A DNA stretch of 64,000 bases from IMG/VR virus record IMGVR_UViG_3300005686_000008; one strand, written 5' to 3'. Position numbers and translations under genes: made by a program. Within the stretch, counting starts at the first letter, position 1. Every line of letters begins with the position of its first letter. The stretch comes from a virus (lineage: Duplodnaviria; Caudoviricetes). Below the pieces are notes generated by a model. It was not told where the DNA came from and made no database searches. It was given only the letters and a program-made list of their open reading frames with translations. Shown here in pieces: positions 13,270 to 48,988 of the stretch.

Positions 13270-14040
13270 ATGAATATCCTTGAAAATAACGCTGACTATC
13301 TTATCAACAGTCTTGATCAGGAAGACTACCTGTTTTATGTCTACGATAGAGCCATAAATGCAGGAGCAAAGCTGTCTGATTTAGTTGAAACTAGATCTAG
13401 TTTTAATAGACTAATGGCTATGTATCAAGAACCAGTTTCTTGTTCCCCTTTGATTCCAAGAAACTACCACAACTTTAGTCATATATCTCAGGGGGTTAGG
13501 GATATTGTTGATGTAGAAGTTTTGTGTGAATGCACAGAAGACGCAATCAATAATGTCCTTCTTGCATGGTTTTACCATGATTGCGTGTATGTCTTAAATC
13601 CAGCGACCGGAACGAACGAAGAAGATAGTGCAAAGTTTGCCCTTAATGAACTTCTACAAATGGGCTTTTCTGGTGAAAGGGCTGGAAGAATCTACGATCT
13701 TGTTTTATGGACAAAACACAAAGTCAATCCTCCAGAAAACGATTATGAAGCTAATCTGATTGTAGATATTGACCTTCAAAGAATCTCCGCCTGCCCTGTT
13801 GAAGCATTTTTTATGTCTACTGAAACAGTAAGGGAGGAATTTGGATTCTTGAGTGATAAAGAGTGGATTGAAGGTAGAATCAAGTTCTGGAAATCTTTTT
13901 TGAAGTTGAAGGGAAACAGAGTCTTTAGAACATCTCATTTTGAGCATCTAAATAAGATTGCTGTTGACAATATAAACAAAGAGATTTACAGTCTTGAAAA
14001 AAGCAATTTCAGAAAAGGAGATAGTAGTGATGAAAAATAG
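13270..14040 (+). CDS. HD-superfamily metal-dependent phosphohydrolase (COG4339-like)
   Basis: RNYHNFSHI, WFYHDCVY, NEEDSA, WTKH, DIDL, VREEF..GR. Confidence 0.8.
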   Translation: MNILENNADYLINSLDQEDYLFYVYDRAINAGAKLSDLVETRSSFNRLMAMYQEPVSCSPLIPRNYHNFSHISQGVRDIVDVEVLCECTEDAINNVLLAWFYHDCVYVLNPATGTNEEDSAKFALNELLQMGFSGERAGRIYDLVLWTKHKVNPPENDYEANLIVDIDLQRISACPVEAFFMSTETVREEFGFLSDKEWIEGRIKFWKSFLKLKGNRVFRTSHFEHLNKIAVDNINKEIYSLEKSNFRKGDSSDEK

Positions 14041-14251
14041 TGATACTGAACTAATGAGAATATTAAATGATATACATCAGTCGGTTATGAAGAAAGACGA
14101 CGATGAAGAATTAGATGACGATCTAGATGATGAAGATGACGATCTAGATGACTGGGACGATGATGACGACGATTTTATGGACGATGATGATGACGACGAT
14201 TACGACGATGATGATGATTTAGAAGATGACGATGATGACGAAGACTTTTAA
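14030..14251 (+). CDS. Small extremely acidic protein
   Basis: AAGGAG RBS, ATG 14030; basic/helical N-terminus then about 50 residues that are mostly Asp/Glu. Confidence 0.7.
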   Translation: MKNSDTELMRILNDIHQSVMKKDDDEELDDDLDDEDDDLDDWDDDDDDFMDDDDDDDYDDDDDLEDDDDDEDF

Positions 14252-14255
14252 CTGC

Positions 14256-14286
14256 AAGACCCTGCCAAGGCGGGGTCTTTTCTTTT
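14256..14286 (+). terminator. Rho-independent terminator
   Basis: AAGACCCTGCC-aa-GGCGGGGTCTT followed by a T-rich tract. Confidence 0.8.
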
Positions 14287-14329
14287 GGTGAAAGCTGGTC
14301 CTGATACCACCATTTTGCCGACAACACCT

Positions 14330-14950
14330 ACTAAGCAGTCATTGGGCATCTAGAGTGTCCCAAGACGAACATAAACAAAGGGAATTCAAGACCCTTCTTC
14401 TTTCTTGAATAGGCTCCCGCCTTAGCCTCCGTCTTAGGCATACAGCCCCATAAAGGGCAGTATTCGCAAAGGAATCTAGATTCTGATGCGTTTTCTCCGA
14501 AGTTCAATAGAACTTAGTTGACTGCTTGGCTTTCACCTTTCACCTTGCAGTTAGACGAAAAGGAGACGGTAGACTGATATATAGCTAAGTCTTCCCACCG
14601 ACTATAAAAGACCAACTTAGCATCTCGTACAAGAGGGTCAGCCAAGAGTGCAATTTTACTTAAAGTTACATTTTTGGCTGAAAGGTCGAGCGCAGCGCTA
14701 AATTGACATAAGCGCTTCCACAATAGATAAAGTTGTGGCTATCTAATATCCAACCTAATAATACAGGAAAGGTTCGAACCGACGTAGGAGGTTCGGACCT
14801 CTGAGCCGATCAGGCTCAGGTAAATAATCAAGCCTACCTGCCCAGACCTGACCCGATGCCTTACGAAAAGCTACAATTAAATTTTCTAATACCTGAAATT
14901 CTTATAGAAATTTTTCCAACAAAAAACCACTACAAAGAACGTAGTGGTCT
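14330..14950 (+). ncRNA. Candidate large structured non-coding RNA (family unknown)
   Basis: ~700-bp gap between convergent genes, with many helices. Wobble pairs read as G-U on +. GCCGACAA -10-like box at 14317-14324 lies just before the first helix. Confidence 0.6.
14921..14948 (-). terminator. Rho-independent terminator (possibly bidirectional)
   Basis: ACCACTAC-aaagaac-GTAGTGGT; A-run on the left (U-tract on -) and CTGTTTCTTT on the right. Confidence 0.7.
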
Positions 14951-14979
14951 GTTTCTTTAATGAAACAATGAGATAATAC

Positions 14980-15780
14980 TTATCTTTGATTCTTTATTTT
15001 CTTATGAATTGGACAATCTCCATCTCCATCAGTATCTTTTTCGCAACAACGATCTGATATATCACCATTAATAAGGAATCCAACTCTAATATTTTCCAGT
15101 TTCTCTTTAATATTCGCAGGCTTTGTTGATTTGGCTTCTATTGGAACTTCTCTCCACAACTCAAGACCTTTTATATTACTTCTTAGGTCTTTAATAAATG
15201 ACTCAACAACAATACTATCCGTTCCTAAATCTTTTGTAGAAAGAAGATTTTCGAGTTTGTCTATATAGGCAAACTCTTCTATTAAACCAGTTCCTACATA
15301 CTGCTGCCAAAACCTAGCAGCCATAGCATGAGGAGCGATTTTCTTCAAAACACTTTTTTCGAAGTAGAAACTCTTCTCATTGAACAAACAGTCGCAAAGC
15401 AACTTGAACCCAACAAAGACATATGCTTTTTGTATCTCCATCGTTGTACCAACGATTACAGAGTCAAATGGCTTTTTGATTTGCCACTCCTCAAACGCTT
15501 GTCTGAAACACCTGTTGATTTCACTTAGATACTTACCTTCAAGCAAAAACGTCCTATCATTCAAGAGACCTTCAATCTTCTCTGGCACGATAGAGAAGAA
15601 CGGAACTTGAACATCTGGTTTGTATAAATTGTTCCATTTTTCTAAGGTTTGCTTACTGTGAGCGTCAAACTTTGACCAGTCAAGCCTATACAATGGAACT
15701 TTTGATGAGTTTGTTGGAAAACAAATCTCTTTTTCAAACACTAACTGCGGAAAATGAACAGGACACCTAACGGTTAACAT
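14980..15780 (-). CDS. Hypothetical protein
   Basis: AAGGAG RBS; ends in Cys/Asp motif CCEKDTDGDGDCPIH. Confidence 0.7.
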   Translation of the reverse strand: MLTVRCPVHFPQLVFEKEICFPTNSSKVPLYRLDWSKFDAHSKQTLEKWNNLYKPDVQVPFFSIVPEKIEGLLNDRTFLLEGKYLSEINRCFRQAFEEWQIKKPFDSVIVGTTMEIQKAYVFVGFKLLCDCLFNEKSFYFEKSVLKKIAPHAMAARFWQQYVGTGLIEEFAYIDKLENLLSTKDLGTDSIVVESFIKDLRSNIKGLELWREVPIEAKSTKPANIKEKLENIRVGFLINGDISDRCCEKDTDGDGDCPIHKKIKNQR

Positions 15781-45970: not shown

Positions 45971-48900
45971 ATGGCTAAAGAAAAACAAAACAACAAACCT
46001 AACAGGCCAAGCGAAACTGTTGATCTTTTCAAAGAGCTTAGAAATAAGATCAAAGAAGACGTTATTGCTTCTTCTAGGATTCCAAGTATAATAGAGTTTG
46101 TGTATGATAAAAAGTACCTTGGTCTTCCTTTTCAGAATCCAGCGGTTATTCCATATGATATACAAGAGTTGATACTTAAGTGTTTCTATAGGGGAAGTCC
46201 GGGAAATGAAAATCTAGAACTAACACAGAAAGACTTGGACATTATAGCAAAGAACGATCTCAACAATCCTCTTAATGGAGCCTTGTTGGATAAATGGAAT
46301 TCAATGGAAAGATTCATTGAACTCGTTCTTGTTTGGGGTCGTCGTTGTCTTTCGGAAAATTGCGAAATAGTTGACCCCAAAACAGGTAAATTATGGACGC
46401 TAGGCGAACTATGGAACTATGGAAAAACAGACTTAGAATCATGGACATTCAATGAAGAAACTTCGTTAATGAATATAATTGGTGACTGCAATCTTGTTTA
46501 TCAGGGCGCTAGAGAGGTTTATAAGGTTCAAACGCTTTCGGGCCATGAGATAGAAGCAACAGATAATCATCCTTTCCTAACAGAAGAAGGTTGGAAACAA
46601 CTAAAAGAATTGAAGCCAAAAGACAAGGTAGCTCTTGTTTCTTCTCAGCCATTTTTCGGTAACTCTACGGAAATATCAGAAGATGAAGGAGCTATACTTG
46701 GCTATGTAAGTAGTAATTCGTGCGATTCTGTCGGATGTTATATTGCTACAACATTGCCAGATGGAGATGTTTTCTTAGACTTTAAGAGCAAAATGCTTTC
46801 TCTTTCTTCGAATTCAAAAATAGAAAGCGCTATGGATCATTCTATCAAAACATTTGATGATAGAAAATACAGTCATGTGTATGCTCAAAAAGCAGTTAAG
46901 CCGCCAGAATCTAATCTGATTACATTCATATACAATAATGGAATAAAGAATAAGTCTGGTGAACAAAAGTTTGTTCCGCATCGCATTTTTGTCGCCCCAA
47001 AGAATGTTGTTGCAGCGTATTTGAGGTCTCTTTTTAGTTGCAATGCGGTATTGCATATTTCAAAATTATCAAGATTTACTTGTAAAATAGAAGCATCATT
47101 TCAAAGTATTAGCCTTACAAAACAAGTGCAACACTTGTTGTCTAGGTTTGGTATTTTTTCTTCTTTTCAATCTAAGTTAGTAAATAACAAGTTAGAGCAT
47201 ATTTTGACTATCAACAAGAACGCTTGTGTAAAACTGTTCTTAGAAGAGATTGGACTAATAGGTTATAATGACGAAATCAAAGATGTTATACAAAGCGTTG
47301 ACGGTAAAGATTCTTCGGTTCGAGTTTTTTCTCCAATAGTGTCTATCAAAAAGATAGGAACAAGAAGAACATTTGATATTCAGGTATCTGATAAGCCGTC
47401 TTTGCAGAATTTTGTTTCTAATGGTTTCATCTGTCATAATAGCGGTAAGGACTTCATAACATCAATTGTTGCTCTTTATGAAGCAATGAGACTGCTAGAA
47501 TGTCCTGGCGGAAACCCATATCAGATGTATAACCTTGGTATGGCCGTTCCATTTACTATTCTAACAATAGCAAACTCTTCAAGACAGGCTAAGATTCTAT
47601 TCAGAGAAATCAAAGAAAAGGTTCTCAACAGCGAATATTTCGCGGACAAGATAATTCCAGAAGGCATAACGGCAGATGCTATTCATTTCCTTACTCCAGA
47701 AGATAAGAAAAGAAATGAAGAACTTATCTCTAAGGGTTTTGCTCCTAATCCCGGGTCAATAGTAGTTATGTCAGGACATAGTAATTCTGATACTCTTGTA
47801 GGTATTTCTTGTTACGTTCTTCTGTTGGACGAAATCGGTTTGTATAAGAATACCGCAGGTTCTTCTTCTGGTGATGCTATTTTCAACTCTCTTGCTCCCG
47901 CAGTAAAGACCTATGTTAGAGAATTGCCTAAGAAAGATAAGGCTGGCAATATCATTATTGGTCAAGATGGAAAGCCAGAGACAGAGAAAGTTTATGATGG
48001 TAAGATTATCTGTCTTTCTACTCCAAGAGGTAAAGAGGGTGTATTCTTTGATTTATACAATACGCATATGGAGACGGCCCATAGGCTTGTTTGTAAGGCT
48101 GCAACTTGGCAAGTAAACCCAATGCAGTCCAAAGAAGGATTGATGGCGGCTTTCCCGGACATGCCAGAAGACAAGTTTAGGATGGAGTTTGGAGCGGAGT
48201 TTTCTGGTACTGCTGGTGAGAACTTCTTCCCAGAAGAGGTTGTAGACCAATGTTTTGCTGAAAAAACCTTGAAGTTTAGAGATCATGGGTCTCCGGGTAT
48301 TTTCTATTATGCCCATTTAGATCCTGCATCTTCTAGTCACAACTACGCTCTTGTTGTTGCTCATAAAGAGGTTTTCTTCAATCCAGAAACGATGAAAAAG
48401 GATTGGAGAATAGTAGTTGATCATATCAAATATTGGACTCCGATGCCAGGTAAGCCTCTTTCTGTAGAAGAGATTGATGAATATGTTGCCGAACTGAATT
48501 CTAGATTCTGTTTTGGAGTTGTTACCTATGACCATTTTAATAGTCAGGTAAGCATTAATAAACTAAGAAAGAGAGGAGTTCCAACAAAGATGACTCCGTT
48601 CTCTAAACAATATAAGAACATCATATATGATAACTTGTATCAAATAGCCGTTCAGGGTAAACTCTATATTCCAAATCATTTGCTTCTTAAGAATGAAATG
48701 AAGAATTTGCAGAGGAAATGGCTTGACGCAGGCTATAAAGTATACCCTAAAAAGGATGGAGATGTAACAACAGATGACATTTGTGATGCTCTTGCAGGAG
48801 CGTGTTACAATTGTGTAGAAAAAGATATTAGTAAACTTCCGCAAGGAAAATTGGTCTCACTTCCCGTACAGGGTAATAATGATATAGTATGGAGATCTAT

Positions 48901-48988
48901 GCAGGGAACACCTTATGGTGTTGGTCCGGGACAACAAGTTGCAAGGCAATTGGAGCGAAGAGCTTCTTGGCCTCGCAGAGGAGTATAA
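45971..48988 (+). CDS. terL: Terminase large subunit with intein
   Basis: Spliced Walker A WGRR|SGKD, Walker B LLLDE, LSTP, EFGAEF, nuclease HLDPA, YDHFN, DDICDALA. Confidence 0.92.
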   Translation: MAKEKQNNKPNRPSETVDLFKELRNKIKEDVIASSRIPSIIEFVYDKKYLGLPFQNPAVIPYDIQELILKCFYRGSPGNENLELTQKDLDIIAKNDLNNPLNGALLDKWNSMERFIELVLVWGRRCLSENCEIVDPKTGKLWTLGELWNYGKTDLESWTFNEETSLMNIIGDCNLVYQGAREVYKVQTLSGHEIEATDNHPFLTEEGWKQLKELKPKDKVALVSSQPFFGNSTEISEDEGAILGYVSSNSCDSVGCYIATTLPDGDVFLDFKSKMLSLSSNSKIESAMDHSIKTFDDRKYSHVYAQKAVKPPESNLITFIYNNGIKNKSGEQKFVPHRIFVAPKNVVAAYLRSLFSCNAVLHISKLSRFTCKIEASFQSISLTKQVQHLLSRFGIFSSFQSKLVNNKLEHILTINKNACVKLFLEEIGLIGYNDEIKDVIQSVDGKDSSVRVFSPIVSIKKIGTRRTFDIQVSDKPSLQNFVSNGFICHNSGKDFITSIVALYEAMRLLECPGGNPYQMYNLGMAVPFTILTIANSSRQAKILFREIKEKVLNSEYFADKIIPEGITADAIHFLTPEDKKRNEELISKGFAPNPGSIVVMSGHSNSDTLVGISCYVLLLDEIGLYKNTAGSSSGDAIFNSLAPAVKTYVRELPKKDKAGNIIIGQDGKPETEKVYDGKIICLSTPRGKEGVFFDLYNTHMETAHRLVCKAATWQVNPMQSKEGLMAAFPDMPEDKFRMEFGAEFSGTAGENFFPEEVVDQCFAEKTLKFRDHGSPGIFYYAHLDPASSSHNYALVVAHKEVFFNPETMKKDWRIVVDHIKYWTPMPGKPLSVEEIDEYVAELNSRFCFGVVTYDHFNSQVSINKLRKRGVPTKMTPFSKQYKNIIYDNLYQIAVQGKLYIPNHLLLKNEMKNLQRKWLDAGYKVYPKKDGDVTTDDICDALAGACYNCVEKDISKLPQGKLVSLPVQGNNDIVWRSMQGTPYGVGPGQQVARQLERRASWPRRGV
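46346..47440 (+). mobile_element. Intein in terminase Walker A with degenerate LAGLIDADG domain
   Basis: GRR|CLSENC...ATDNHPF...FICHN|SGK; 365 aa; endonuclease motifs read ILGYVSSNS and LRSLFSCNA. Confidence 0.93.

Follow-up and report, generated by a model that had tools for sequence, protein, structure and literature searches.

Between two convergent genes of a huge uncultivated phage lies a gene-free gap that we regard, with a probability of about 0.7, as the gene for a stand-alone, trans-acting non-coding RNA of about 570 nucleotides that is read from the + strand and represents a new family. The comparison of the homologous loci shows that this predicted RNA is large, elaborately folded and under purifying selection. 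Two lines of evidence identify it as a structured RNA of the + strand: Compensatory base pairs are found on one strand in numbers that exceed both slid and shuffled controls, and G·U pairs greatly outnumber A·C mismatches in the helices. A preliminary description of this DNA had already proposed a structured + strand RNA of a new class, in kind like GOLLD and ROOL, and in our analysis this is the best reading of the locus.

The locus and its relatives

The window, i. e. the whole stretch of 64,000 nucleotides that was analysed, corresponds to bases 165201-229200, on the reverse strand, of an IMG/VR virus record of 370,652 bp. According to CheckV, this record is 73% complete, and related contigs of 257 kb and 334 kb are 51% and 66% complete, which implies genomes of about 0.5 Mb in this phage lineage. 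The whole genome of the source phage is thus probably about 0.5 Mb in size, with 370 kb recovered. Bioreactor sludge is the source of the phage DNA, and freshwater metagenomes contain fragments of its close relatives. The genome has a G+C content of 40% and carries 25 tRNA genes in arrays distant from the RNA locus (the nearest at least 45 kb away, as determined with ARAGORN in the genome). One tRNA gene (G000:C1:363188-363261) has the anticodon CTA of an amber suppressor and is labelled tRNA-Pyl by ARAGORN; the long ORFs of the window read well with the standard code despite this gene. The large terminase shares less than 25% identity with its counterparts in isolated phages. Its gene (45971-48988) encodes 1005 amino acids with an intein-like insert in the N-terminal half, which begins with a Cys after ...GRR, ends in ...ICHN/S and precedes the ATPase/nuclease part; the PHROG terminase match spans only residues ~450-955. 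In the related contig L002, the ThyX gene (L002:551-2416) encodes 621 rather than the usual 310 amino acids and has a faint LAGLIDADG match, and this doubled size suggests the insertion of an intein or a homing endonuclease.

The gap extends from 14252 to 14979 (728 nt) and is the largest ORF-free stretch in the window, as had been noted before. Directly upstream of the RNA, an ORF on the + strand (14030-14251) encodes an acidic, Asp/Glu-rich protein of 73 amino acids and is followed by a clear terminator (14256-14279, + strand). Downstream, a convergent ORF for 266 amino acids (14980-15780) is read from the - strand, and the hairpin at 14924-14950 is mainly the terminator of this gene: Its - strand reading has 11 pairs and a T-run, its weaker + strand reading 8 pairs. 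The earlier statement that the stretch is bounded by terminators is therefore correct for the upstream side, whereas the downstream hairpin mainly ends the gene on the opposite strand. The G+C content of the gap is 0.45-0.47 as compared to 0.31-0.40 in the flanks, and the folding z scores against dinucleotide shuffles are -5.6 for the + strand and -3.95 for the - strand of the gap region; two homologues gave z scores of -6.6 and -4.7. The inverted repeats that had been listed in the preliminary description are present in the gap. The acidic ORF is found in most relatives and is missing from L024. Its GAT/GAC repeats draw hundreds of unrelated metagenome contigs, and weak Rfam matches to RsmY and a snoRNA-like RNA fall into this repeat-rich ORF, outside the RNA element. 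Contigs from four DNA sequencing runs that were compared with the locus likewise gave mostly low-complexity matches to the acidic ORF and thin coverage of the remainder, and the sequencing runs listed for the locus include no RNA run.

Homologues of the locus were obtained from relatives of the flanking proteins, via a protein database and look-up of the corresponding contigs; single-protein locus searches with two flanking proteins yielded nothing. The flanking proteins have few homologues, and these sit on long contigs with a common gene order. An SMC/ABC-type ATPase is followed by two unknown genes, in most cases a cytidylyltransferase-like gene, an HD phosphohydrolase and, again in most cases, a small acidic ORF; next come a gap of 600-720 nt and the peptide deformylase gene, def. 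A conserved word of the core directly retrieved the same contigs and two metagenome contigs. In this way, we obtained 16 full or nearly full homologues that belong to at least six clades with about 50% identity between clades; L021 is an additional, more divergent and partial copy of the RNA. The RNA is present in every related contig that covers the slot, it is single-copy per genome, and it is always located upstream of def; its + strand is also the one from which def and the upstream gene block are read. The homologues and covarying helices that had been called for as a check on the original proposal are thus at hand.

The space between the RNA and def is a hot spot (14980-15780 in the window and the same slot in the relatives): Some lineages carry a basic ORF of 63 amino acids and/or a convergent ORF of 256-276 amino acids between the gap and def, and others carry nothing. 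The convergent ORF, whose presence depends on the lineage, is of unknown family and has a Cys/Asp-rich ...CCEKDTDGDGDC... tail. The conserved basic protein (62-68 amino acids, with the invariant pattern W..L...WG.V..Q) has its gene immediately behind the RNA in three clades (L006:5800-5991 and L010:2933-3139, both on the - strand, and L025:5169-5363 on the + strand). It was dismissed as an obligate partner of the RNA since it is not found in the genome of the window, which is 73% complete. Among the neighbours, PADLOC reported only a generic PtuA/AriA-like ABC ATPase and neither an RNA-linked defence system nor a nearby reverse transcriptase. A blastn search against 50,697 phage records detected no similar DNA. 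A loose pattern of the core gave 37 matches in 185,579 prokaryote genomes, all of which failed the covariance model and are thus chance matches, a result that does not show absence of the RNA from bacteria. Judging from the contigs at hand, the RNA family is confined to one lineage of huge uncultivated phages from freshwater and sludge, with one copy per genome.

Helices, pseudoknots and their covariation

The conserved architecture of the RNA comprises a 5' domain, in which a hairpin precedes two H-type pseudoknots in tandem, a central part with the helices P6 to P9 and a near-invariant core of 70 nucleotides around P10, the long hairpin P12, and a variable 3' domain. Nearly all helices of the preliminary description are present and recur in the homologues with other letters (P2, S2, P5, P6, P8, P10, P12, P15 and the pairing 14535/14679), and the two H-type pseudoknots had been missed. 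The hairpin P2 of the 5' domain (TTGGGCAT/GTGTCCCAA, 14342..14363) keeps its position in all clades while its arms are of unrelated sequence, and the same is true for P7 (14465-14490), P11 (14623-14636), P12 and P15 (AGGTTCGAACC/GGTTCGGACCT). The first pseudoknot (14378..14410) consists of the stems S1 (14378-14382/14392-14396) and S2 (14384-14391/14403-14410). It was detected by script in 10 of 12 sequences and read by eye in the other two; the pairs of the pseudoknots were counted with custom scripts. S1 varies between GGG/CCC, GAG/CUC and UGG/CCA, and S2 (ATTCAAGA/TCTTGAAT in the window) has compensatory changes both within and between clades. The second pseudoknot follows immediately (14411..14439) and is formed by P4 (14411-14415/14424-14428) and P5 (14419-14422/14436-14439), with the loop CCGUCUU between them. 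P5 (GCCT/AGGC in the window) comprises 4-8 bp of a sequence that is different in each clade, and its 3' arm always begins 7 nt past P4.

In the central domain, the hairpins P6 (GCCC/GGGC, 14445-14458), P7 and P8 (AAGTTC/GAACTT, 14500-14515) keep their place and change their arms. They are followed by P9 (14517..14556), a helix of 13 pairs with the conserved loop CUUUCACCUUUCA, and by the near-invariant core (14552..14623) with GACGG, GACUGA, P10 (CTAAGT../..ACTTAG, 14584-14590/14615-14621) and the loop CCCACCGACUAUAAAAGACCA. The unpaired letters of this core do not vary between clades with an overall identity of only about 50%. P11 separates the core from the long hairpin P12 (TCAGCC../..GGCTGA, 14638-14681). 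The 3' domain (14687..14895) with the hairpins P13 to P16 (e. g. at 14770-14800 and 14801-14819) aligns poorly between clades; its hairpins recur in place, and the words CAAUGAAAAGGU and ACCUG are conserved, as is the word ACGAAAAGCU (14863-14872), after which the final AGCUA...UACCUG hairpin is located.

Several pairings would be in competition with this fold or with each other. The 5' word CUAAGCAGUCA (14331..14341) is the 5' arm of a long-range helix with 14519-14529 that had been thought to enclose the first helices. The complementarity of 11 bp is real in the window; elsewhere, it extends over only 4-7 bp, and it shares bases with the 5' arm of the covarying helix P9. Thus, the long-range helix is not the fold that covariation favours, and it may be an alternative conformer. 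Moreover, the P9 loop with CCUUUCA can pair with UGAAAGG right after P12 (the word UGAAAGGU at 14679-14686 is complementary to the loop nucleotides 14535-14542). This pairing of 8-9 bp is available in all clades (ACCTTTCA/TGAAAGGT, 14535/14679) and overlaps the invariant base of P12, and two further UGAAAGG-like words are located near the 5' and 3' ends of the RNA. Finally, GACGG (14565-14569) can pair either with CCGUC of the pseudoknot 2 loop or with ACCG of the P10 loop, and each of these options has at most one informative change. Since their sequences are invariant, CCGUC/GACGG, CGGY/RCCG and the P9 loop with UGAAAGG are candidate pairings only.

The fold is supported by covariation. When plain MAFFT alignments were used as the input for RNAalifold, 23 of the 66 pairs of the whole element (11 sequences) and 22 of the 49 pairs of the central domain (16 sequences) were changed on both sides. 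Upon recounting of the central domain, 96.6% of the cells were canonical and 26 of the 49 pairs compensatory; this number dropped to 6-11 if the 3' partners were slid by 1-3 columns, and none of 500 column shuffles reached the observed value. For P9, the covariance model of the core gave 10 doubly changed, i. e. compensatory, pairs out of 13, as compared to 1-5 in the slid controls, and again the observed covariation was not reached in any of 500 shuffles. In anchored pair tables, P10 has four compensatory pairs out of seven (100% canonical), the first nine pairs of P12 include four, P8 has four out of five with imperfect anchoring, and P4, P6 and CCGUC/GACGG have one compensatory position each; some of the compensatory counts rest on few events because the homologues represent one phage lineage with few independent clades. 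In a freshwater variant contig that is about 92% identical over 14589-14785, the exchange of G14646 to A turns a G·U into an A-U pair in P12, and C14651 and A14668 in the same hairpin are changed together, which converts a C·A mismatch to U·G.

Ends of the RNA and competing explanations

All 16 homologues contain the word TTTGGTG and, 27-28 nt on, the word (G)CCGA(T/A/C)A; the spacer is variable in sequence and its length is constant to +/-1 nt. TTTGGTG is located just past the upstream terminator or, in L024 and L026, which lack this terminator, directly past the upstream stop codon. The corresponding motif of the window, TTTGGTG-N27-GCCGACAA (14284..14324, + strand), is a putative promoter. 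The bipartite word TTT(G/C)GTG-N26-28-(G)CCGA(A/T/C)A has 5-6 copies in the 370-kb genome, where about 0.4 would be expected per strand. A distance of 20-25 nt separates two of the copies from the start of a gene, and copies are located at the reverse-strand offsets 26483 and 97784 (0-based, genome G000). The word may define a promoter class of this phage. As the motif TTTGGTG-N27-GCCGAYA looks like a promoter, the RNA would start at about position 14330, at the conserved CUAAG. The box GCCGACAA had been described as sigma28-like: It is indeed conserved, held at a fixed distance from TTTGGTG and promoter-like, whereas this spacing does not fit the sigma-28 consensus, TAAA-N15-GCCGATAA. Downstream of the RNA, the word TATAGAAAT was considered as a general promoter and discarded because it is not enriched in the genome. 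The last conserved elements of the RNA are CAAUGAAAAGGU and the hairpin ending in ACCUG (14862-14895). The comparison of the homologues revealed no conserved intrinsic terminator on the + strand 3' of the RNA, and the hairpin at 14924-14950 is not kept as a + strand terminator in them; in the genome of the window itself, this hairpin may also stop the RNA, at 14926-14948. From these features, we infer an RNA of about 570 nt that extends from about 14330 to about 14895, perhaps on to the hairpin at 14950.

It is extremely improbable that the element is a decayed gene or that it hides small protein-coding genes. Gene callers do place ORFs of 42-70 amino acids over the element in some contigs, but these are spurious: In each homologue, every frame of both strands is interrupted by 3-17 stop codons, the longest ORFs change their frame and position from clade to clade, insertions and deletions do not come in threes, and the substitutions follow the base pairs. 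We also give very little credence to the idea that the inverted repeats act as DNA, for instance as an origin of replication, a site for packaging or palindromes to which proteins bind. The intergenic position between convergent genes and the wealth of inverted repeats would be in agreement with such a role; however, the two strands are not equivalent. We folded the hairpin segments in a strand-neutral manner with G·U pairs forbidden and classified the single mismatches that were left over in the helices. Inside helices built from Watson-Crick pairs only, there were 23 G·U mismatches versus one A·C, and at helix ends 48 versus 15. Similarly, the pair cells of the central alignment contain 99 G·U versus six A·C, and if the structure is mirrored on the - strand, only 84.7% of the cells are canonical and 99 become A·C. 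The consensus energies differ accordingly between the + strand (-49.2 kcal/mol) and the - strand (-27.7 kcal/mol). This asymmetry indicates selection on an RNA that is read from the + strand rather than on DNA, and it justifies the earlier decision to read the wobbles as G-U pairs on the + strand. Moreover, the pseudoknots are maintained by covariation, and the element contains neither iterons nor an AT-rich unwinding tract.

The element might also belong to a known class from which it has diverged so far that the covariance models missed it; the candidates are tmRNA, RNase P RNA, ORF-less group II or group I introns, GOLLD and ROOL. The succession of H-type pseudoknots is reminiscent of tmRNA, the size would fit ORF-less group II introns and ROOL, and the phage is rich in tRNA genes. 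We nevertheless consider this to be improbable: A cmscan with Rfam 15 gave no match at the gathering score in the window, none at E <= 10 for 14100-15100 and none at E <= 1 for six homologous loci, and ARAGORN detected a tmRNA neither in the window nor in the genome as a whole. The hallmarks of tmRNA are a tRNA-like domain with acceptor stem and T-arm and a reading frame for the tag peptide. The element has no tRNA-like end, and a conserved tag frame is lacking as indels break the frames. RNase P RNA is characterized by the conserved regions CR-I to CR-V with the P4 pseudoknot and is covered by the type A and B models of Rfam; none of these matched at the thresholds given above, and the conserved words of this RNA are not seen in the alignment. 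Group I and group II introns are inserted into a host gene, flanked by its exons, and have a catalytic core (P3-P9) or the domains V/VI. In all contigs, the element is intergenic between complete genes, it has no Rfam intron match, and inspection of the alignment by eye revealed neither a domain V nor conserved words of the P4 type. ROOL and GOLLD were likewise discarded, as their Rfam covariance models match neither the window nor the six homologous loci; GOLLD usually adjoins tRNA genes, and these are at least 45 kb away here. Thus, the earlier statement that hallmarks of tmRNA, RNase P and introns are missing is correct, and the novelty that had been made dependent on the Rfam search stands. 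A full-text search of the literature found no description of such an RNA.

The most serious competitor of a trans-acting RNA is a giant cis-acting leader, i. e. a 5' untranslated region that would control def and the following genes via alternative folds, for instance by a change of partners at the base of P9 or by competition among the three UGAAAGG words for the P9 loop. Mutually exclusive pairings do exist, and the RNA invariably precedes def in the same orientation. In L013, L024 and L026, def even starts 40-60 nt past the last conserved hairpin with no terminator in between, and in these relatives the RNA probably shares a transcript with def. In the window and in L002-L004, L006, L007 and L027, by contrast, a convergent gene and its terminator are located between the RNA and def, and yet the RNA is fully conserved. 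Furthermore, an RNA of about 570 nt that contains two or more pseudoknots and 70 nt of invariant core goes far beyond known bacterial leaders, and there is no conserved terminator/antiterminator pair at the 3' end. We therefore regard the leader as rather unlikely and favour an RNA that acts in trans, because the architecture is kept irrespective of whether the next gene is def, the 63-amino acid ORF or the convergent gene.

Possible function and comparison with known large RNAs

The trans-acting RNA would be transcribed from its own promoter-like motif, TTTGGTG-N27-GCCGAYA, and would act as a folded RNA. In this model, the helices serve as a scaffold that would place the invariant unpaired letters GACGG, GACUGAAUGA and AACRCCGACCUYAAAAGA as well as the three UGAAAGG-like words. 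The fact that about 70 mostly unpaired nucleotides of the core are invariant across clades that share only half of their sequence suggests a binding or active site, and it is conceivable that the core letters and words together form such a site for a conserved partner, either a protein or an RNA. This partner might belong to the translation or RNA-processing machinery; both the partner and the activity are guesses, and the link to translation comes solely from the constant neighbourhood of def and the 25 tRNA genes. A search for complementarity between the core loops and the phage genome, with the locus itself left unmasked, returned only the RNA locus. It is tempting to speculate, with a correspondingly low expectation, that phages of about 0.5 Mb possess a new functional class of RNA, a ribozyme or an RNA-only or RNA-protein assembly on the translation or RNA-processing machinery of the host, in which activity or binding would reside in the core and the competition at P9 would serve as a conformational switch.

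To our knowledge, large and highly structured RNAs of bacteria and phages are rare, and those that are understood are ribozymes or RNA machines. The RNA described here adds a further family of large RNAs, unrelated to ROOL, GOLLD and OLE, with covarying helices, two pseudoknots and an invariant core, and it is a defined object for structure probing, cryo-EM and assays of activity. It also strengthens the case that huge phages possess large RNAs of their own. Finally, the family should help to correct gene calls since several pipelines put spurious small ORFs over the element.

The string of H-type pseudoknots in a phage that is rich in translation-related genes is a feature shared with tmRNA, which some large phages carry; in contrast to tmRNA, the new RNA is about 200 nt longer and lacks both the acceptor/T-arm domain and the tag reading frame. 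The unexpected cage-like structures of ROOL, GOLLD and OLE have come to light only recently, and their functions are still open. For ROOL and GOLLD, which count among the large 'ornate' RNAs and occur in phages as well as prophages, cryo-EM shows multimeric cages that are made of RNA only (bioRxiv 10.1101/2024.12.08.627333). The new RNA differs from these two in that it has no Rfam match or shared motifs, is not located beside tRNA genes and occurs in one lineage of huge phages. Yet, it is like them in kind: All are phage-borne non-coding RNAs of several hundred nucleotides with many helices, pseudoknots and strongly conserved unpaired nucleotides, and the phage that carries the new RNA also carries tRNA genes.
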